Source: a virus (taxonomy: Duplodnaviria; Heunggongvirae; Uroviricota; Caudoviricetes). From it: a stretch of DNA of 64,000 bases. The DNA lies in IMG/VR virus record IMGVR_UViG_2850808358_000005; one strand, 5' to 3'. A model generated the notes under the pieces. That model was given only the letters and a program-made list of their open reading frames with translations, searched no databases and was not told the origin of the DNA. Of this stretch, positions 10,176 to 49,259 are shown piece after piece. Made by a program: the position numbers and the translations under genes. Within the stretch, counting starts at the first letter, position 1, and the number at the start of each line of letters is the position of its first letter.

Positions 10176-11371
10176 GACTCCACCGTTATAACGATATTTT
10201 CCGGGGTACAGGACGCAGATTCGTTGTATCTGATATCAATGTTTGATGACGACAAAGCCCCCGGGGATTTCCCAATCGTCAGCTCCTGAATATCGTAATA
10301 GCGTGCATTCCCGCCACTCACCACGCCAAGATTCGCCGGTGAGTAAATGCGACTTAAAAGGACCGAATCACCAATCGTCAGACTATTGATATAGTCGGAA
10401 ATAACCTGCTGGATCTGCTGCCCTATCTGTGAGGTATAACCCGTAAAAACTTTTAATTTAATCCGGGCATAAACAGGCACATCACTGGAACGCGAGAATT
10501 TGATTACATGGGGATTGCCGTATTTATCCGGAACCGTAACGGATGTTGTACCGTGAGTGGCTGTCCCCTGGCCTTTATTCCCTCTGATAGCCTGAGCAAT
10601 ATCCGTCACATCACCGCCATCCACAATTACAGCAACAGAGTGTGGCGGTAACCCGTTACCGTCCTCCGAACCAGTATCGTTTTCATAGAGTTTGTGGCGG
10701 GTTACACCGGCAACATTAGAAACAGCACCATCCAGTGCTTCAAATGGGGTTATTGATGGCAACGCAACACTTTGCGACTGGCGGATACGTAACTCAGCAT
10801 CAGTTTCTGCCGGAGAGCCAACAGTAGCCGCAGCAGGATTAATTACCGAAACCCAGCCACGGGTTGGCGTATTAATTTCAGTGATAGTTCCAGCCAGCGC
10901 CGCCACTGCACCACTGACGGAACATCTTGCGGTCGCCATCACTGTACCATCCACACCGACCACCACTGACGCAGGCAAACGCCATATCACATTATTACCA
11001 TCTTTCACGCTGCCATTAATGATGGTTGTTCCGGCTGTTCCTGTAAGAAGCAAATCAACCGTAGAGTTCGTCGCGCCTTTACGTGAAATACCATTTATTT
11101 TCACGTTACTGGTCAGTGCAGCCCCATAGCCGGTTGCCGGTGAAAAACAGTTGTAGACAGTTATAGCCATATTATTGGCATCATGAATCGCCAGCGCCAT
11201 CAGAGCCACCATCTGACCGTCTTTACTGTCCGGTTCGAGGTAGGCATCACTACCATAAATCTGCTGAAAATAGCTAATCAGGGTGCTGAGTATCGTCTGA
11301 TAATCAGGCGCACTGATCCCCTCCGCGGTTACCTTTGCAGATAAACCGAGAGAATCAAGGTTCAGAGCCAT
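10172..11371 (-). CDS. Baseplate J-like protein (Mu gp47-like)
   Basis: 399 aa, position and size in baseplate operon. Confidence 0.6.
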   Translation of the reverse strand: MALNLDSLGLSAKVTAEGISAPDYQTILSTLISYFQQIYGSDAYLEPDSKDGQMVALMALAIHDANNMAITVYNCFSPATGYGAALTSNVKINGISRKGATNSTVDLLLTGTAGTTIINGSVKDGNNVIWRLPASVVVGVDGTVMATARCSVSGAVAALAGTITEINTPTRGWVSVINPAAATVGSPAETDAELRIRQSQSVALPSITPFEALDGAVSNVAGVTRHKLYENDTGSEDGNGLPPHSVAVIVDGGDVTDIAQAIRGNKGQGTATHGTTSVTVPDKYGNPHVIKFSRSSDVPVYARIKLKVFTGYTSQIGQQIQQVISDYINSLTIGDSVLLSRIYSPANLGVVSGGNARYYDIQELTIGKSPGALSSSNIDIRYNESASCTPENIVITVES

Positions 11372-11724
11372 TACGCCTCCGATGTAACAGTCGTTATTCC
11401 ATAGAGAGTGTCGATTTCAGTGGAAAACCTGACACGTCGGGTCGTGGTATCCACCGTAGTATTGAAAGAGAGGATTGATTTAACGCCCCGCGTTTCGAGG
11501 ATGCGCTTACGGATCGCCAGGTTGTAGGTTTCCGGCTTCTGCTTACCGAGTACGGACTGGATCCACGGAGTCCCCTCGGTGGTGTCGAGAAACCATTGCC
11601 CATACCACAATTCGAATCGCGTTTTTACCGCCTGCGCCACGGCCTCCGGTGAGTTAATCAGCCAGGTGTCATCACCGCTGCCAAAGGTGTAATCGCCATC
11701 GGCGTCTTCACGTCTGTATCGCAT
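11371..11724 (-). CDS. Baseplate wedge protein (gp25/W-like)
   Basis: 117 aa, follows the baseplate spike gene. Confidence 0.55.
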   Translation of the reverse strand: MRYRREDADGDYTFGSGDDTWLINSPEAVAQAVKTRFELWYGQWFLDTTEGTPWIQSVLGKQKPETYNLAIRKRILETRGVKSILSFNTTVDTTTRRVRFSTEIDTLYGITTVTSEA

Positions 11725-12476
11725 CAGTTTACTCCGTCGGTATTGCTTCCACCGCGCTGAACACCACCATGAGTGTGCGTATCATCGATTGGCTTGCCGT
11801 TAGCCTTCACGCTACCCAAAAACTCAACAGCACCAGTGATTTTTGAAGCCACACCAGAAACAACAGACCCCACCATGCCACCCATCCAGGTTAACAGGCC
11901 ATGAATGGTTACTTTCTCAGAAAAATCAGCCAGAGGGGCAACCACATCAAGACCACCCGGAGCGACAATTTTAATTTTCCTGGTATCAGGATTAAGCTCA
12001 AAATAGGTACTGCCGTCGTCACTACGCAACTGTGTGGCACTGGTATTAATACCGCTAATCTTCCTCGCCTGCGACTGGGGACCTACAATACAAAACGCAT
12101 CCGATAAATCATGCATTCTGTCATCAACCGGCTCCTGTATCCCGCCACTCTGCCACCAGAAATCAATACAACGATCGGCAAAAACGACAAGACACTCATC
12201 CCCGGCTTTTACCGGAAAAGTCAACGTACAGCCTCCGCCGCGCGGGAATACCACTGGCACATCCACCAGCAAGGGTAATGTCGTCGACTGGTTGATTCCA
12301 TTTGAGTCTGGCTCATAGCCTTTAATCGCTGGTTGAACAACTACCGTTACCGTGTCCGGATCAAATGACTGGACGATGCCGGGCATAGAAACACGCAGCG
12401 CCGACATGACAGAGCCAGCAAGTCTTACATCGGCCTGTTCTTTGCTACCAAGTTGAGCGCTTAAAGAAACTGGCAT
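11724..12476 (-). CDS. Baseplate assembly/spike protein (gpV / Mu gp45-like)
   Basis: 250 aa, Gly-rich C-terminus, gene order. Confidence 0.55.
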   Translation of the reverse strand: MPVSLSAQLGSKEQADVRLAGSVMSALRVSMPGIVQSFDPDTVTVVVQPAIKGYEPDSNGINQSTTLPLLVDVPVVFPRGGGCTLTFPVKAGDECLVVFADRCIDFWWQSGGIQEPVDDRMHDLSDAFCIVGPQSQARKISGINTSATQLRSDDGSTYFELNPDTRKIKIVAPGGLDVVAPLADFSEKVTIHGLLTWMGGMVGSVVSGVASKITGAVEFLGSVKANGKPIDDTHTHGGVQRGGSNTDGVN

Positions 12477-12493: not shown

Positions 12494-12526
12494 GCAAAAA
12501 ACCCACTCGAAGGCGGGTTTTATGTA
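12494..12526 (-). terminator. Rho-independent terminator after the secreted-protein moron
   Basis: Hairpin aacccac-tcgaa-ggcgggtt flanked by an A-run and T-run, between the 113-aa gene and the baseplate spike gene. Confidence 0.5.
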
Positions 12527-12584
12527 GCTAGTTTTCTTTCCATGGTGATAGAAGCAATTACCGTGAAAAGTTAATTTAGCGAAC

Positions 12585-12926
12585 TCATTTCTTATTTTCA
12601 GATAGCACCAATCTACATTCTTCTTTTTTTAGAATCGTAAGAGATTGGCCACTATCGGAAAAAGAATAACCGCACTCGAAAGCGAGTTGACGCAGAGCTA
12701 TTTCACCATAACTATCACCATGTTCTTTCATTAACTCATCACCAAAATCCGCCTCACGACCATTAGATACAGCGTCCATAGCCGCATTAGAAACAGCCCT
12801 ATTTGTGATCTCTCTCTTGATGATGTAGTTATCAGCCAGTGAGGTGTGCAGTCCAAAAAAATCATTCAGCGTTCCACCTACACAAATTGTTGGAGTCAAC
12901 ACTGCGAGAAGGAATATTTTCTTCAT
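12585..12926 (-). CDS. Small secreted protein of unknown function (moron)
   Basis: 113 aa, N-terminal signal peptide MKKIFLLAVLTPTICVGG, AT-rich, own terminator. Confidence 0.5.
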   Translation of the reverse strand: MKKIFLLAVLTPTICVGGTLNDFFGLHTSLADNYIIKREITNRAVSNAAMDAVSNGREADFGDELMKEHGDSYGEIALRQLAFECGYSFSDSGQSLTILKKEECRLVLSENKK

Positions 12927-12961
12927 TACAAATGTCTCTTATAGCTGATTTCTTAAAAAAA

Positions 12962-13216
12962 TTAATTACAGTACGTTGTGCCAGTATTGGTCGCCTGGCA
13001 TTCACGATGTACTGCACTCCCATTAATCGTTCCTGTGGTATACGTAGTACCTGTATTGGTTGTATAAGATTCTGTTTTAACTGTAGAACCACTACTGTCT
13101 GTACCAGTACAGTAAGTTGTTCCTGTATTTGAAGTGGTGCATGTTACCGCAGCCACAGAAGACAAAGTCACAAAATATACCAGTAATAAGATCCATTTAA
13201 GCATTTGGTACCCCAC
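12962..13216 (-). CDS. Small secreted Thr/Gly-rich repeat protein of unknown function
   Basis: 84 aa; signal peptide MLKWILLLVYFVTLSSVAA then three NTGTTY(C/T) repeats with Cys residues; AT-rich. Confidence 0.45.
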   Translation of the reverse strand: MGYQMLKWILLLVYFVTLSSVAAVTCTTSNTGTTYCTGTDSSGSTVKTESYTTNTGTTYTTGTINGSAVHRECQATNTGTTYCN

Positions 13217-14237
13217 TTATTTTCGCTATCGTATCAGGAGTGAGTAAACTTTTACTCCCTTTAGCCAGGCAAAGCAGGTCCATATACCACGCCTGCCCTC
13301 GGGTGTCGCCAGTATAATCAATGCTGCCCACAATGTAATCACCGTCAGTATTAATGCTGGCAGGCTGTGACATGCCTGGCAGACCGTTAACGTAGAGATT
13401 ACCGTCGCTTTCAGACTCATCCAGTCGTGCTGGCGATTTCGCTACCTGGTCATTACTCAAAGAGGCACGGTATACAGATGCCTGATCCAGACGAATAAGC
13501 CCACCGAGCTTAATATTTGGATTAATCAGACATCTGACATTTACGCCAGCTCCCATCGTCTGCTGTGGCATACTGATAAGCCCGGTGTTAGCATTCAACA
13601 CCGTAGCAACACCAATATATTTATCTTCAGGAACAATATTTACCAGATTATTTTCATACCACCAGTTAGCTTTACACTGCCCTGCGATATGATTCATCAA
13701 CCTTGATGTGTTTTGATAAACAACGCGACCTCGGGGAAATACCGTTTCAGGCATGTCAGGAACTGCACCGGATTCGATGCCATATGGTTCGAATGATTTC
13801 ATACCCAGACTGAAAAGATCGCTGTACTTCCAGCCAGCAGCCACTGTGGTTTTCACACTTGCGTTCAGGTGGCCTTCCCAGCTGTCAATACACTGCAACA
13901 TGATCCAACTGTCTGTGGCATTATCTTTACCAGTGACAGTAAAACGGATATCTCCATTGAATATCATACCAACGTTTTCATCAGGATAATTACCTGCTGC
14001 ATCCGGTTGCCCCTTGTATCCGGCAATAACCTGTATACGCGAAAACTCCTTCTGCATAATCCGGTTCTGAGTGGTAGGAGACAGGTTATAAACCTTAAAA
14101 TTTCCAACAAATCCATTAAATATGGTCGCAGGCATTTTCTGAATATTGAAAGTGACTTTAAGCTCAGAAATTTTTATCCCGTCGCCCTTATCATCAACAA
14201 GCAATAATTCAAAGTGACGCATCCAGTTTTTCGACAT
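13197..14237 (-). CDS. Baseplate hub-like tail protein
   Basis: 346 aa, gene order between tape measure and baseplate genes. Confidence 0.45.
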   Translation of the reverse strand: MSKNWMRHFELLLVDDKGDGIKISELKVTFNIQKMPATIFNGFVGNFKVYNLSPTTQNRIMQKEFSRIQVIAGYKGQPDAAGNYPDENVGMIFNGDIRFTVTGKDNATDSWIMLQCIDSWEGHLNASVKTTVAAGWKYSDLFSLGMKSFEPYGIESGAVPDMPETVFPRGRVVYQNTSRLMNHIAGQCKANWWYENNLVNIVPEDKYIGVATVLNANTGLISMPQQTMGAGVNVRCLINPNIKLGGLIRLDQASVYRASLSNDQVAKSPARLDESESDGNLYVNGLPGMSQPASINTDGDYIVGSIDYTGDTRGQAWYMDLLCLAKGSKSLLTPDTIAKISGVPNA

Positions 14238-14239
14238 TG

Positions 14240-14542
14240 TTACTCCGTGAAAACATAGAGGTGTGAGAGCGTTCCAAGATCGAATTGCGTCGGATTCTCC
14301 TGCCCTGCCACGTCGCAGAGCACCACCAGAGAAAAACCCAGATCCATATATCGATACTGTGCCAGCAGGTCAGCCCCCGTAATCATCGGTATACCTGATA
14401 TAATGGCGGAGCCATTGCTGTCAGCAAGATCCAGAACCCAGCACTCGCCTCGCCAGATGACAGACAGGTGATAAACCGAACCGTTAATTGTGGTGGCAAA
14501 AGTCTGATTGTCAGCAACCAGTGGGATTTCTACGGCTTTCAT
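14240..14542 (-). CDS. Phage tail protein (hypothetical)
   Basis: 100-aa ORF in tail operon. Confidence 0.4.
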   Translation of the reverse strand: MKAVEIPLVADNQTFATTINGSVYHLSVIWRGECWVLDLADSNGSAIISGIPMITGADLLAQYRYMDLGFSLVVLCDVAGQENPTQFDLGTLSHLYVFTE

Positions 14543-14545
14543 GAA

Positions 14546-15196
14546 TCACCTTCCCAGAAATAAATTGCTCAAATACCCATCAACAGTGGAGATACCTTCT
14601 TGCGCCATCTGTGGCAGCGATTTCAGAATGGAATTATTCGGCGGCACCGTTGTTTTGGTGCCTGTATTCTGCACAGCAGACGTTCCGACTCCCTCGGTCA
14701 TATTGTTTTTCGGGGCAACCCTGACTGACTGCGTGGAGGTAATAATTACTTCCCTGAGGGTAAGTGTCGCCAGAAGCACATTTTCACTACTCTTATCGGT
14801 CGTGACCTCCAGCGTTTTTATCAACATATTGTTGTAAATACGCTTGCCGGTTGTCACATCGAAAGGAATACGATTCCGCTGCAGGTTAAGCAGTTCCTGA
14901 TACAGTTCTTTCGGGCTCAGCCCCAGTAAACTGGTAGCAGTCAGGTTACTGGCAAAATCAAGCAGCGATCCGCCTCCGGAAAAACCGGTTTCCATCACAA
15001 CCTCAGAAGGGCGCCTGAATGCGTGTTCTGATATGTAACCAGCGCCCTCACCACTGGCACCAGCATTCGTGGGCTGTTCAACCGGATGTTCCGTAATTTC
15101 CAAGGCGTCAGTGTGCTTTTCGGTAATAACCACATCAGGAATAATGATTCCTATTGAGCGGGTTCGCTGCTGCAGTAAAACAGATAAAAAGTCCAT
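14546..15196 (-). CDS. Phage tail protein (DNA-circulation-like position)
   Basis: 216-aa ORF immediately downstream of tape measure. Confidence 0.4.
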   Translation of the reverse strand: MDFLSVLLQQRTRSIGIIIPDVVITEKHTDALEITEHPVEQPTNAGASGEGAGYISEHAFRRPSEVVMETGFSGGGSLLDFASNLTATSLLGLSPKELYQELLNLQRNRIPFDVTTGKRIYNNMLIKTLEVTTDKSSENVLLATLTLREVIITSTQSVRVAPKNNMTEGVGTSAVQNTGTKTTVPPNNSILKSLPQMAQEGISTVDGYLSNLFLGR

Positions 15197-17148
15197 TACG
15201 CAGGTCCTTTCAATTGCTGTACCGCCCTGGCATTTACAGCCCCCTGCTTGTCAGCGATCAGATTAGCCGCCTCCTGAGGGTTGTTAACTCCATGAACATT
15301 TATAACAGTCTGCTGGTTAAGGTTGCCAGCGGCGGCCTGATACGCCAGCGGGCTGTTCCAGTTTGAATAACCTTCTTTGCGCGCCATCGACTGCATCAAT
15401 GCTCCCATAGTCCGGGGATCTGTAAGATTCAATATTGCATTCGGTGATACTCCCATCCATTTCGCAACATCCTGTGCATACTTTTTCGGATCGTTGTTAT
15501 CACCTGCCGGGGCCCAGGTACTGACAATATCCTGAATAGTCTGTAATGCCCGTCCGGTTGTTTTCCCGGTAAAGTAACGCATGAGCTGGTTTTTCATCGC
15601 CTCCCAGCCCTCAAGAGCTGATTCGAAAAACCGGAACCCTTTACCGCTCACCGGGCGAATATTCCCTGGATTGTTATTCCGATCGGCTAAAGTACGCTTC
15701 GTAGACTGCGCATGTTGTTCCGGCTCAGCACCTGGAATATCTGACTGAATATTTGCGCCTTTTACGGTATGAGGATTACGACCAAAATCGGTATCAATGC
15801 CAAGCCAGCGCAATGAATCTCCAATATTTTGTTTCGTGTAATCCCAGGATGACTTCGCACTGGCACCAATATTTTCGCGATCAGAGTACAAATACGCAGC
15901 ATAAGCCATCCAGCCTTTTAACCACGGCGGGACCAGCAAACCTGATATTTTCCCGAAAGCCCCCAGAACCTTGGATACCCAGACACCCGCGATGAATGTA
16001 CCGAGGATTTCCAGTGCATTTTGCCAGCCGCCAACACCATCTTTTAGTTCCAGAAGGTGATCACGAAGCCAGGTGATCGCATCCTTCGCTTTATCTATTG
16101 CTGGTTGCCATTTTTCCCAGTCGATAAGACTGTTACCGCCTTCTTTCCATGTTTTGTAGTCTTCCCACAAGAGACCGAGAGCCACGATCAGACCGGTAAT
16201 CAGCCCTATAGGTGACATCCAGAAAGTAGAGTTAAGTATCCGCATGGCGACAACCAGACCGCCGATAACCTCTATCAGGGTTTTCGTTTCGGCATCCAGT
16301 TTCCCCCACCACTCGATGATATCTCCGACACCATCGACTATCCGGAATGCACCCCGCCCGACTATCTCACCCAGCCAGAGGATCCCCTTTATGACCTTTG
16401 TGATGGTGACTTCAATTTTGGGAAAATTTTCAATTATCTTTTTGCGCAGGTTATCAATCTGCCCCGCCAGTCCGTCCGCAAGATTCGATCCGATTTTGTC
16501 CCGCGCCATCCCGGCCATTTCACCGAGCGATTTCAGCGAGGTCATAAACCGGTTTGACGATAAGGCAGCCTGATCGGCATTAAATCCGATCGCTTTCACC
16601 ATTTCTGAATACTGAGCGCTGAACTGCCCCACTCCGCGACGCATAGCCATAAGGGTATTTTCGTCAATGCCCAGCATCTGCGCATACTGGTTAGCCCGGT
16701 AATACGGCATACCGCTGAGCTTCTGGCCTACACCAGTAAAAATAGCGGCCATGTCACGCATGTTACCGCTGGCATCACGGGTCTGTACGCCCAGGCGATT
16801 CAGAAAGCCTTCTGCACCGGGATTGTTACGAATAAACCGGGAGAAGCTTTCCAGAGAAGATCGCGCAGCGTCCACGCTGCCGCCAACCTGCGAAACCGCA
16901 TAGCCAATAGACTGAATTCCCTGGACTGTCGCGCCGGTGCGCTGTGACGCCCAGTAAAGATTATCCAGACCGGAGGCGATCTTAGCCGTGAAGGCCACCA
17001 CGGACAGCGCAGCTCCTTCAACAGCCAGCCCCATTTTGATGACATTTGCAGTTGTACCGGCGAGGACAGAACCGAACTTTTTCGCTCCTGCATCATCCAC
17101 ACTGAAGCCAAGCGAGACGAGGAAATCTTTAATAGTCTCGGCGTTCAT
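15196..17148 (-). CDS. Tail tape measure protein
   Basis: 650 aa, internal hydrophobic segment (LIEVIGGLVVAMRIL...IGLITGLIVALGLLW), C-terminal NNPGNIRP motif. Confidence 0.8.
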   Translation of the reverse strand: MNAETIKDFLVSLGFSVDDAGAKKFGSVLAGTTANVIKMGLAVEGAALSVVAFTAKIASGLDNLYWASQRTGATVQGIQSIGYAVSQVGGSVDAARSSLESFSRFIRNNPGAEGFLNRLGVQTRDASGNMRDMAAIFTGVGQKLSGMPYYRANQYAQMLGIDENTLMAMRRGVGQFSAQYSEMVKAIGFNADQAALSSNRFMTSLKSLGEMAGMARDKIGSNLADGLAGQIDNLRKKIIENFPKIEVTITKVIKGILWLGEIVGRGAFRIVDGVGDIIEWWGKLDAETKTLIEVIGGLVVAMRILNSTFWMSPIGLITGLIVALGLLWEDYKTWKEGGNSLIDWEKWQPAIDKAKDAITWLRDHLLELKDGVGGWQNALEILGTFIAGVWVSKVLGAFGKISGLLVPPWLKGWMAYAAYLYSDRENIGASAKSSWDYTKQNIGDSLRWLGIDTDFGRNPHTVKGANIQSDIPGAEPEQHAQSTKRTLADRNNNPGNIRPVSGKGFRFFESALEGWEAMKNQLMRYFTGKTTGRALQTIQDIVSTWAPAGDNNDPKKYAQDVAKWMGVSPNAILNLTDPRTMGALMQSMARKEGYSNWNSPLAYQAAAGNLNQQTVINVHGVNNPQEAANLIADKQGAVNARAVQQLKGPA

Positions 17149-33430: not shown

Positions 33431-33586
33431 TTACTTCCTGGATTCGTAGTCTACGAAGACAGCGACCTCCGTCTGGCCGGTTCGGATTCGTACCTCACAG
33501 AGGTCTTTCCTCGTTACCAGTGCCGTCACTATGACGGTTAAACAGATGACGATCAGGGCGATTAACATCGCCTTTTGCTGCTTCAT
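33431..33586 (-). CDS. hok: Hok/Gef-family type I toxin
   Basis: MKQQKAMLIALIVICLTVIVTALVTRKDLCEVRIRTGQTEVAVF... matches the Hok/Gef family; overlapping upstream frame (mok-like). Confidence 0.85.
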   Translation of the reverse strand: MKQQKAMLIALIVICLTVIVTALVTRKDLCEVRIRTGQTEVAVFVDYESRK

Positions 33587-33813
33587 AGCCTGCTTCTCCT
33601 TGCCTTTCGGCATGTAAGAGGCTAACCTACATGTGCAAAGCATGAAATTGGCCTCAGATTAATGTTAAGCGTCTTGCCGGACGCGTAATGTTAACTGGGG
33701 CTTTTCTCTATCTGCCTTTTGGTGTTCATGCCTGAAGCAGATAGCCTCAAGCACCCGCAGTCATTCTACTTACCTCGCCAATATGAAATCAATCAGAAAG
33801 GTGCCCCATAAAA

Positions 33814-40950: not shown

Positions 40951-41220
40951 GCTTTCTGATATCCGGGATATTGACAAAGCAACCTGCATTGTTGCAAGAT
41001 GATCGCACTAGAAACAGTTAAGCGGTCATCCGCACCCGATAGCCTTGCGGCTTTTTTATGCCTGAAATACGGCACATCCGTACAAAGATCGGGTGGAGAG
41101 GCGTAATACAATACCCGTAAGGGGAATATGCCCGGAGCTTCTTAACTGGCTCTAGTTGACACCCGATCACCAGCTACTAACTGGTAATCGCAGACTAAAA
41201 CAGTTAAGGAGGCCACTAAA

Positions 41221-47020: not shown

Positions 47021-47185
47021 ATGTATAAAATTACAGCCACTATTGAAAAGGAAGGTGGTTCTCCTGCCAGCTGGACAAGATACTCAAAGACAAAACTAAC
47101 GAAATCAGAATGCGAAAAAAATGCTCTCAGGGGAAAAAGAAGCAGGCGCTTCCAGAGAGCAGAAAGTAAAACTGATAAATTTTAA
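47021..47185 (+). CDS. Hypothetical small protein
   Basis: GGAGG RBS before MYKITATIEKEGG... Confidence 0.3.
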   Translation: MYKITATIEKEGGSPASWTRYSKTKLTKSECEKNALRGKRSRRFQRAESKTDKF

Positions 47186-47316
47186 TTGCGAGAAACTTCA
47201 GTCCTCGTGAATTTCATTATATCCAGATTAGAACTTCATAGCTGATTATTAAAAATCAACCACACCCGCCAGTATTCTGTATATTTACTGGCGGTCATAT
47301 CGTGAGAGGTATGGCA

Positions 47317-48788: not shown

Positions 48789-49242
48789 GATTCCTGTTTT
48801 CGTCAACAAACAATAAAACCCTTTAAAATTAATGCGTTGAATAAATTTACGTTCATCTTTTAATCCCTGGCACGTACCATTGCATATTAATACATTCAAC
48901 CAGTTACCATTTTTTTCGAGTTTTTTAGAGAAATTTTCGGGAATATTTCAGGTCAATCCATGCAGACGCAAGCAATTCCTGTATTGAATAATTCCGTAGC
49001 AATTATGTAAAATCATCTCCGGCTGATTTTCATTCAAACTCGCGCTATCGAACATCCATCAGCCAGCCGTGGCACGTTCTTGCATACGACGTGCTACGGT
49101 TTCCTTTACGATTTGGGGTTGCGACTTTACCTCTATTGATAATGCATTCCGGCAGAACGTTCAAATATGAAGTACGATGTTTAACTAACCGAAAAACAAG
49201 AACAATACGGTGCAAGCAAGCTATTCACAGTTAACTGAAACA

Positions 49243-49259
49243 GTATCGTTTTTTTACAG
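49243..49259 (+). promoter_or_regulatory. MxiE box, second copy
   Basis: GTATCGTTTTTTTACAG identical to the first copy. Confidence 0.8.

Follow-up and report, generated by a model that had tools for sequence, protein, structure and literature searches.

The HK97 protein gp15, a product of the tail operon, prevents the DNA of phages of its own type from entering the cell, and the Bor and Lom proteins of lambda are envelope proteins of the lysogenic-conversion type. In T4, Spackle (Sp) is a small, helical, Sec-exported and disulfide-containing protein which inhibits the tail-spike lysozyme in the periplasm. Llp of T5 and Cor of phi80 and N15 are small receptor-blocking lipoproteins whose genes lie in or next to the tail genes and which exclude phages at the cell surface. 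The late genes of lambdoid phages are read by an antiterminated polymerase. The moron concept and the description of HK97 gp15 reportedly go back to work of Juhala and Hendrix in 2000 and of Cumby in 2012. Prophage hotspots of anti-phage genes, those of P2 among them, are an established pattern (PMC9122126; bioRxiv 10.1101/2022.05.12.491691).

The locus described here is a slot in a prophage baseplate operon, flanked by the hub and spike genes and occupied by two genes that we designate T and B. As it stands, the feature is of an ordinary kind, accessory cargo of a prophage, with a tidy pattern among relatives and two members that are uncharacterised; its points of interest, all modest, are the rule that an exported protein opens the slot, the hairpin-repeat protein T, which annotation misses, and a candidate defence hotspot lying within the baseplate operon. 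A search of the literature on the T motif, SEN34 and baseplate morons returned nothing relevant, and a description of this hotspot was not found in the papers searched.

The window, by which we mean the whole 64,000-nt stretch of DNA that was analysed (IMG/VR record IMGVR_UViG_2850808358_000005), carries a defective E. coli/Shigella prophage inserted at the ybhA/mod locus. The prophage contains a lambdoid early region, a tRNA cluster and a holin-lysozyme-Rz cassette, the latter separate from the hub-spike slot, and its late/tail module is related to Salmonella phage SEN34 (Brunovirus). Judged by gene order, a DUF1133 gene occupies the position where Q normally stands, and an ipaH effector gene adjoins the tail-fibre genes. 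IS600, at ~8600-9883, interrupts the DUF2612 wedge gene, and in a genome whose T/B locus has the identical DNA sequence PGAP lists several prophage genes as frameshifted or truncated; in a prophage damaged in this way the current function of T and B is uncertain. The tail operon is read on the minus strand in the order tape measure, Dit-like protein, plug, hub, T, B, spike, sheath-initiator/wedge protein and Baseplate_J:

15196-17148, minus strand: tape measure
14546-15196, minus strand: Dit-like protein
14240-14542, minus strand: plug of the Pam3_gp18 type
13197-14237, minus strand: baseplate hub, 346 aa, left flank of the slot (PF22759 E217_GP41, 3.4e-07; phrog_196 'baseplate hub', 7e-79)
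12962-13204, minus strand: gene T, 80-aa precursor starting at the ATG at 13204 (homologues, codon-position variability and an AF2 model)
12585-12926, minus strand: gene B, 113-aa precursor (phrog_13007, family alignment and an AF2 model)
11724-12476, minus strand: membrane-puncturing spike, 250 aa, right flank of the slot (PF18352 N-terminal domain, 1.3e-44, and PF18946 GpV Apex motif)
11371-11724, minus strand: sheath-initiator/wedge protein (phrog_120; PF10934 in homologues)
10172-11371, minus strand: Baseplate_J

The tape measure carries a lytic transglycosylase domain, and the spike gene has its own GGAGG ribosome-binding site, read from the sequence 3' of the terminator described below. 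An earlier note on this DNA had placed two AT-rich ORFs between hub-like and spike genes, as is indeed observed: PF22759/phrog_196 and PF18352 identify the two flanks, and GC is 0.38-0.41 across the T/B interval compared with ~0.45-0.53 on either side. A plus-strand ORF of 97 aa (12839-13132) and nested minus-strand ORFs in the same interval were set aside as shadows of T and B, either antisense or out of frame.

A comparison with E. coli CFS3292 (L002) and scans for terminators and promoters yielded the following features:

12520-13257, minus strand: exchanged cargo segment of ~738 bp, made up of a variant hub 3' end, T and B (pairwise blastn against L002, E. coli CFS3292)
12498-12521, minus strand: intrinsic-terminator-like hairpin, AAAACCCGCC-TTCGAG-TGGGTTTT followed by a T-run (terminator scan)
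13311-13339, minus strand: sigma-70-like match, ATTACA-17-TATACT, a weak candidate and the sole match upstream of T (promoter scan)

Homology to CFS3292 on the hub side, at 99.5% nucleotide identity, ends at 13258, ~20 codons before the hub stop, and returns with 95% nucleotide identity in the spike at 12519, the 5' edge of the terminator, indicating that the exchanged segment extends from 12520 to 13257. The last ~20 hub codons (13197-13257) fall inside this segment, which has a GC content of 0.39 against 0.49 in its flanks. At the same place CFS3292 carries a 111-aa exported protein, belonging to family A as described below, and a DUF4282 membrane protein; near-identical hub and spike genes there enclose a non-homologous first gene, and T and B are both missing. 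In the distantly related Providencia phage PSTCR3 the hub stop overlaps the spike start with no gene between them, and in Burkholderia phage Magia a single reverse-strand gene stands alone between hub and spike. The different cargo of CFS3292 and the abutting genes of PSTCR3 bear out the proposal of the earlier note that the two genes are accessory and not part of the virion.

The terminator hairpin has a 9-bp stem, lies 22 nt upstream of the spike ATG and is present in both the MFE and the centroid RNA fold, with a fold energy that is unexceptional against shuffled sequences (z = -1.45). Among relatives, a terminator of the form ACCCGCC-loop-GGCGGG-T-run is found at most ~50 nt from the spike start in 42/46 loci with any cargo; of the remaining four, L029 is without a terminator, a canonical one is missing from L043 and L045, and L009 is not clear-cut. 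Retention of the terminator irrespective of cargo suggests that it is a feature of the slot, not one of a T/B cassette. A terminator does follow the two genes, at 12498-12521, as had been claimed, but it appears to be slot-wide and not their own.

Neither inspection by eye nor the scan revealed a convincing cassette promoter in the 55 nt upstream of T. The weak sigma-70-like match lies within the hub coding sequence, its -10 element overlapping the conserved hub DYTGD codons, and the scan returned 2 sites compared with 5.4 +/- 2.0 expected from shuffles. With an overlap of 8 nt between its ATG and the hub stop (ATGCTTAA), T is translationally coupled to the hub gene; in other loci, family A overlaps the hub stop as ATGA. 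A promoter of their own, such as a classical moron has, was not found for the two genes, and together with the hub coupling this means that expression could be purely late.

The ORF first listed for T comprises 84 aa (12962-13216) and starts at a GTG at 13216. T homologues start at the internal ATG at 13204, giving 80 aa, and are 77-80 aa long in Yokenella, Cronobacter, Trabulsiella, Hafnia and metagenomes, with the exception of two metagenome sequences, both divergent, that have 91 and 70 aa. The earlier size of 113 aa for B is retained, while that of 84 aa for T is not. Differences per codon position 1/2/3 are 0.37/0.27/0.70 in pairwise comparison of seven loci, a coding signature indicating that T is a real gene. 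T is kept as an ORF of 77-80 aa in 21 places, consisting of the window, three members of the 46-locus set used below, three further contigs and 14 IMG/VR loci, some of which are the same prophage in different assemblies. PGAP left T unannotated in identical DNA, from which it follows that annotation-based surveys of prophage cargo overlook T, and the exact 80-aa sequence is absent from a collection of 15 billion proteins, in which partial Shigella boydii entries only are present. Two further features were located within the gene:

13148-13204, minus strand: predicted Sec signal peptide of T, 19 aa, with cleavage between SVAA and VTC (n/h/c-region and -3/-1 heuristic)
12967-12988, 13036-13057 and 13108-13129, minus strand: three copies of a 22-nt unit (repeat search)

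Signal peptides were judged throughout by a home-made n/h/c-region and -3/-1 rule, not by SignalP, and this heuristic is satisfied by all 13 aligned T-family members. Mature T would be a Thr/Gly-rich protein of 61 aa, 66% of them Thr, Ser, Gly or Asn, with four Cys forming two C-x9-C pairs that are nearly invariant in the family. The pairs are of the disulfide type and T is probably a Sec-exported periplasmic protein, as read from these sequence features. The 22-nt copies are spaced by 69 and 72 nt, a period of 23-24 codons, and encode the three NTGTTY(C/T) hairpin motifs of T, which are conserved across the family; the repeats and the several Cys had both been pointed out before, and the count of four now applies to the mature protein. 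In the AF2 model (pLDDT 84) a separate signal helix (residues 2-17) is followed by a six-strand beta meander. Searches of T against Pfam and NCBIfam gave no match, PADLOC only a chance-level Cas5d (E = 0.048), PHROG nothing convincing (best E-value 0.052), and a profile search of PDB sequences chance-level matches only (E >= 0.66). A relation of T to family A was considered and rejected, as the alignment covers the signal peptides alone.

B residues 1-113 match positions 1-116 of the 116 in phrog_13007 (E = 1.9e-38), and an exhaustive profile search of 1.84 billion representatives identified ~16 true B-family clusters. Cleavage of B is predicted after an 18-aa signal peptide, between VGG and TLNDFF, again by the heuristic and not by SignalP, and all 21 B-family sequences satisfy the same rule; the claim of the earlier note that both proteins have signal peptides is consistent with Sec-type export of each. 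Mature B is an acidic protein of 95 aa with a pI of 4.9, and G70, C85 and C104 are invariant in the family alignment, from which features B is probably Sec-exported, disulfide-bonded and periplasmic. Structure prediction, proposed earlier as a check, gave confident AF2 models for both proteins, beta for T (84) and helical for B (86.9), the latter a helical bundle with a pLDDT of ~97 in the core. No match to B was obtained in Pfam, NCBIfam or PADLOC, nothing by profile search of the PDB, and nothing below E = 1 when its fold was compared with BFVD; T, too, resembles no fold in the PDB or BFVD. Both T and B lack matches in 50,697 phage records (megablast, tblastn), and the two families are uncharacterised. 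The lipobox pattern [LVI][ASTVI][GAS]C is absent from both: the signal peptide of T ends in ...SSVAA before VTC, and B reads ...TPTIC-VGG, in which positions -3 to -1 of the sole N-terminal Cys are P-T-I and the Cys itself is lost in homologues.

The exact B sequence is widespread in contigs of E. coli O28ac and Shigella boydii. Relative to strain BCE049 (97.7% nucleotide identity), pN/pS is 0.83 for T (5 nonsynonymous, 2 synonymous changes) and 0.43 for B (3 nonsynonymous, 2 synonymous), compared with 0.05-0.14 for the structural genes. The higher values fit faster-evolving accessory genes, with counts that are very small and below what a test would require.

The slot was followed in relatives by fetching 50 loci via the hub protein, one genome per species, of which 46 were usable in that both the hub end and the spike start could be located; the translated slots were then searched with HMMs. 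Hub and spike are separated by 346 to 2824 bp, and the slot is lower in GC than its flanks in every locus read. An exported protein opens the slot in 46/46 loci. In 39/46 this is an intact family A protein (phrog_3443, 7e-48; ~111-117 aa, with a signal peptide and a QCG...YDC motif), two of these being fusions of a lipoprotein, X, to A. T is first in 4/46 (the window, L003, L005 and L008), lipoprotein X fused to another domain in 2/46, and a different exported protein accompanied by family A remnants in 1/46. A profile search of family A against PDB sequences gave chance-level matches only (E >= 0.66).

T lies directly after the hub in 21/21 places, in none of which is an intact family A gene found beside it. 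A C-terminal remnant of family A is present just after T in L008 (profile positions 88-111) and L075 (88-110), and similar remnants occur in L002 and L041. T is thus a rarer alternative to family A, the usual slot opener. B is present in 7/46 loci and is never first, following A in five and T in two. Among the additional T loci, B is found in L058, L068-70, L073, L074 and L077, and T occurs without B in L003, L008, L061, L063, L071, L072, L075, L076 and L078-L081. The partners of T vary from none, as in L003, L071, L076 and L081 where T is the sole cargo, to B, family C or toxin-antitoxin-like genes, and in L063 T is found with an unrelated two-gene module. The two genes therefore assort independently across ~60 related SEN34-like prophages, indicating independent modules and not a two-gene system; the idea of the earlier note that they form one two-gene moron does not hold, as T and B occur apart and B follows family A in five loci.

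Family C, found in some T loci, consists of exported proteins of 120-136 aa, and a distant relation to A is plausible but modest (hhalign probability 80%, E = 1.4e-5, a value inflated by the signal peptide). Lipoprotein X is fused to A in L018 and L022, to B in P0037 and to other domains in L017 and L026, suggesting that the modules act at the periplasm-facing membrane surface. Most occurrences of the B and T families are in prophages whose hosts are Enterobacterales from the environment, plants or insects, namely Pantoea, Rahnella, Rosenbergiella, Hafnia, Trabulsiella and Yokenella. The slot also holds homologues of PD-Lambda-1 in L039 (E = 1.4e-82) and, by homology of 408/409-aa proteins in the clustering of cargo, in L049, a membrane-anchored Mrr-type nuclease in L021, Phd/Doc in L010 and a P22 antirepressor-like protein in L008, and DUF4282 is among the cargo elsewhere. 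The PD-Lambda-1, nuclease and Phd/Doc genes mark the slot as an accessory hotspot and a candidate defence hotspot.

Combined, these results make us confident that T and B are exported accessory cargo in a hotspot and not virion parts. Presence of T in 4/46 and of B in 7/46 loci is not the constancy with the hub-spike module shown by a baseplate protein of E217/Pam3/SEN34-type tails; both genes come and go among close relatives between conserved neighbours, and their base composition is unlike that of the surrounding phage genes. Family, PHROG and structure searches revealed no resemblance of either to known virion proteins, in agreement with the earlier note.

What T and B do is a more tentative matter. 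Superinfection exclusion at the level of the envelope is our leading guess, one held with clearly less than even confidence. The envelope location predicted from heuristic signal peptides and conserved Cys pairs is that of an exclusion protein such as Sp, Imm, gp15, Ltp or Cor/Llp; homology, in sequence or fold, to a characterised exclusion protein was not found, nor was any likeness to known exclusion proteins or lysozyme inhibitors, T4 Spackle included. The proposed mechanism starts from a lineage-wide accessory slot that extends from the hub 3' end to the conserved terminator just upstream of the spike and in which T and B are two independent single-gene modules. Coupling to the hub implies that the late operon mRNA, at the least, is a source of T. 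To go by gene order, a Q-type antiterminated polymerase probably transcribes this operon. Such a polymerase would ignore the terminator, which would then have an effect only on polymerase without antitermination, namely in the lysogen, and its retention suggests that in the repressed prophage the slot receives some transcription, which has to end ahead of the spike gene. T and B would most likely act in the periplasm, shielding the lysogen or the infected cell, where the incoming tail tip (the spike, or the tape measure with its transglycosylase domain) might be hindered as it penetrates the envelope. Taken as a whole, the account of the slot, T and B, a blend of our confidence in cargo and our tentative view of exclusion, is about evenly balanced.

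The exported first gene kept in every slot-bearing member could also point to a role in the phage cycle and not in protection of the lysogen. A broader idea, doubtful at present though more than idle, is that B and the exported slot openers A, C, T and the lipoprotein-X fusions constitute an unrecognised, diversifying class of periplasmic factors directed against the contractile-tail penetration machinery, acting either in exclusion universal to the lineage or as a required infection or egress factor; T and B would then be new folds, and the terminator and family A remnants would be anchors of cassette exchange.

Among the alternatives to exclusion, the one that survives best, which we consider unlikely, is that T, B and A are periplasmic factors of the late lytic cycle, made only with the tail proteins and acting on the envelope of the producing cell; they might, for example, keep phages from re-adsorbing to or superinfecting a cell that is dying, modulate lysis, or shield progeny from cell debris. 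The overlap of the T start with the hub stop, the ATGA overlap of family A elsewhere and the failure to find a cargo promoter are what such a factor would show, an exported first gene in 46/46 slots fits a function the phage itself needs, and the three minimal slots (L029, L043 and L045) consist of family A with no terminator. However, a terminator in 42/46 loci is hard to explain if lysogens transcribe nothing there, typical prophage-expressed defence genes share the slot, PSTCR3 does without any such gene, and the lysis cassette lies elsewhere in the prophage. Somewhat less probable again is a factor of lysogenic conversion or host fitness unrelated to phages, which would alter the envelope of the Shigella/EIEC carrier, its tolerance of stress or its dealings with the host, in the manner of lambda Bor and Lom. 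Export is predicted for both T and B, an ipaH effector gene resides in the same prophage, many E. coli O28ac and Shigella boydii contigs carry exact B, and T and B are intact within a decaying prophage; a pathogen-specific role is nevertheless made unlikely by the environmental, plant and insect association of most family members, and no similarity of T or B to known virulence factors was found.

The remaining two readings are both very improbable, and a share of the probability goes to no named function. Virion or assembly components, seated in or on the hub-spike complex, with a hydrophobic N-terminus that would insert into the membrane as a helix during infection, would suit the location between hub and spike, the translational coupling to the hub and the constant presence of some first gene, but not a non-homologous first gene between near-identical hub and spike genes with a T-A alignment confined to signal peptides, the empty position in PSTCR3, the conserved cleavage-site motifs and paired Cys typical of periplasmic proteins, the AT-rich, foreign composition of T and B, or the lipoprotein fusions of A and B. 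A secreted, bacteriocin-like disulfide toxin (T) with a periplasmic immunity protein (B) would accord with a small, exported, Cys-containing T beside a small, predicted periplasmic helical B, the two being adjacent or one gene apart in the window, L005/L074, L058, L073 and L077, but T occurs without B in many loci (L003, L008, L061, L063 and others), B follows family A in the absence of T in five, the T leader is Sec and not of the bacteriocin export type, and the searches linked neither protein to a known bacteriocin or immunity protein.

Returning to exclusion as the preferred reading, block of entry from the periplasm by T, B or A would make these new, very small exclusion proteins without known relatives. 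Such a block would also mark a site for defence and accessory genes in the baseplate operon of a lineage widespread in Enterobacterales.

Compared with the described systems, T and B resemble the late-operon morons (lambda bor and lom, HK97 gp15) in their insertion between otherwise adjacent structural genes, a base composition unlike that of their neighbours, a terminator downstream and products predicted for the envelope. They differ from classical morons in that no promoter of their own was detected, the first gene is coupled to the hub and the terminator is that of the slot, not of the cassette, and they share no sequence or fold relation with gp15, Bor or Lom; phrog_13007, to which B belongs, and phrog_3443 of family A are both PHROGs of unknown function. 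The slot is like the P2 hotspots in being a fixed site between conserved phage genes with variable cargo in homologous prophages, cargo which includes the PD-Lambda-1 defence family and nuclease or toxin-antitoxin modules, but here the lineage is SEN34-like and the site is inside the baseplate operon, and a small exported protein that always opens the slot is a feature not described for P2 hotspots. Like Llp and Cor, T and B are predicted small envelope proteins encoded among tail genes; unlike them, they are without a lipobox, and only some of their relatives are lipoprotein fusions. With T4 Spackle they share the small, disulfide-containing type with predicted Sec export, and the transglycosylase domain of the prophage tape measure could be an analogous target.

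Gene T, encoding an 80-aa predicted exported protein in the accessory-gene slot between the baseplate hub and spike genes, is a real small gene overlooked by annotation. This conserved gene, present in the window, L001 and L067, was left unannotated by PGAP in DNA identical or 97%-identical to that of the window. The exact T protein was not found in a collection of 15 billion proteins, in which only partial Shigella boydii entries were detected.

Window 12962-13204 (minus strand): gene T
L001 9097-9339: gene T
L067: gene T

In related loci, a lipoprotein domain, X, consisting of a lipobox followed by ...KSLIDWSGE...YHEYG..., is placed N-terminally and fused to family A (exported protein, phrog_3443), to family B (that of the 113-aa predicted exported protein of the window) or to other C-terminal domains. 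The slot families are thus tied to one another by modular architecture.

L018 5099-5989: X fusion
L022 5075-5941: X fusion
L017 5068-6207: X fusion
L026 5086-6210: X fusion
Protein P0037: X fusion (X-B)

C-terminal family A remnants of ~25 codons each recur 3' of the first slot gene in four loci, with starts that all fall within profile positions 86-93. As sequences, these remnants look like recombination scars or cassette-exchange anchors.

L002 ~4412-4500: family A remnant
L008 5278-5394: family A remnant
L041 ~4887-5100: family A remnant
L075 ~3735-3810: family A remnant

In other genera, the hub-spike slot carries defence-type cargo or, in one locus, a P22 antirepressor-like gene.

L039 5498-6724: PD-Lambda-1 homologue (E = 1e-82)
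L049 3407-4636: PD-Lambda-1 homologue, by homology to L039
L021 5480-6328: Mrr-type nuclease, transmembrane
L010 5429-6270: Phd/Doc toxin-antitoxin pair
L008 6593-7552: P22 antirepressor-like gene

Elsewhere in the window, a tRNA cluster is positioned with the Q-position gene on one side and the lysis cassette on the other, and small RNAs are detected by Rfam matches above the gathering score.

31040-31350: four tRNA genes, for Gly-TCC, Thr-TGT and Arg-TCT, the fourth having a CAT anticodon (Ile in the RefSeq annotation)
47027-47206: RalA antitoxin sRNA
33581-33756: sok antitoxin, adjoining hokD
1089-1271 and 49068-49250: CssrB (Shigella sRNA), two copies
41087-41176: sRNA-Xcc1

Annotation of the matching RefSeq genome places ipaH, which encodes a T3SS effector E3 ligase, past the tail-fibre genes. 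By position, a 571-aa ORF beyond the tail-fibre genes of the window is the candidate counterpart of ipaH, which points to Shigella/EIEC as host.

1400-3115 (plus strand): 571-aa ORF

A complete baseplate is beyond the capacity of this prophage, because the DUF2612/wedge gene, downstream of Baseplate_J, is split by IS600 and its contiguous remainder comprises the N-terminal 102 aa only.

8600-9883 (with 9867-10175): IS600 copy (IS3-family) in the DUF2612/wedge gene

The spike protein (11724-12476) matches PF18352, the phi92 gp138 N-terminal domain family.
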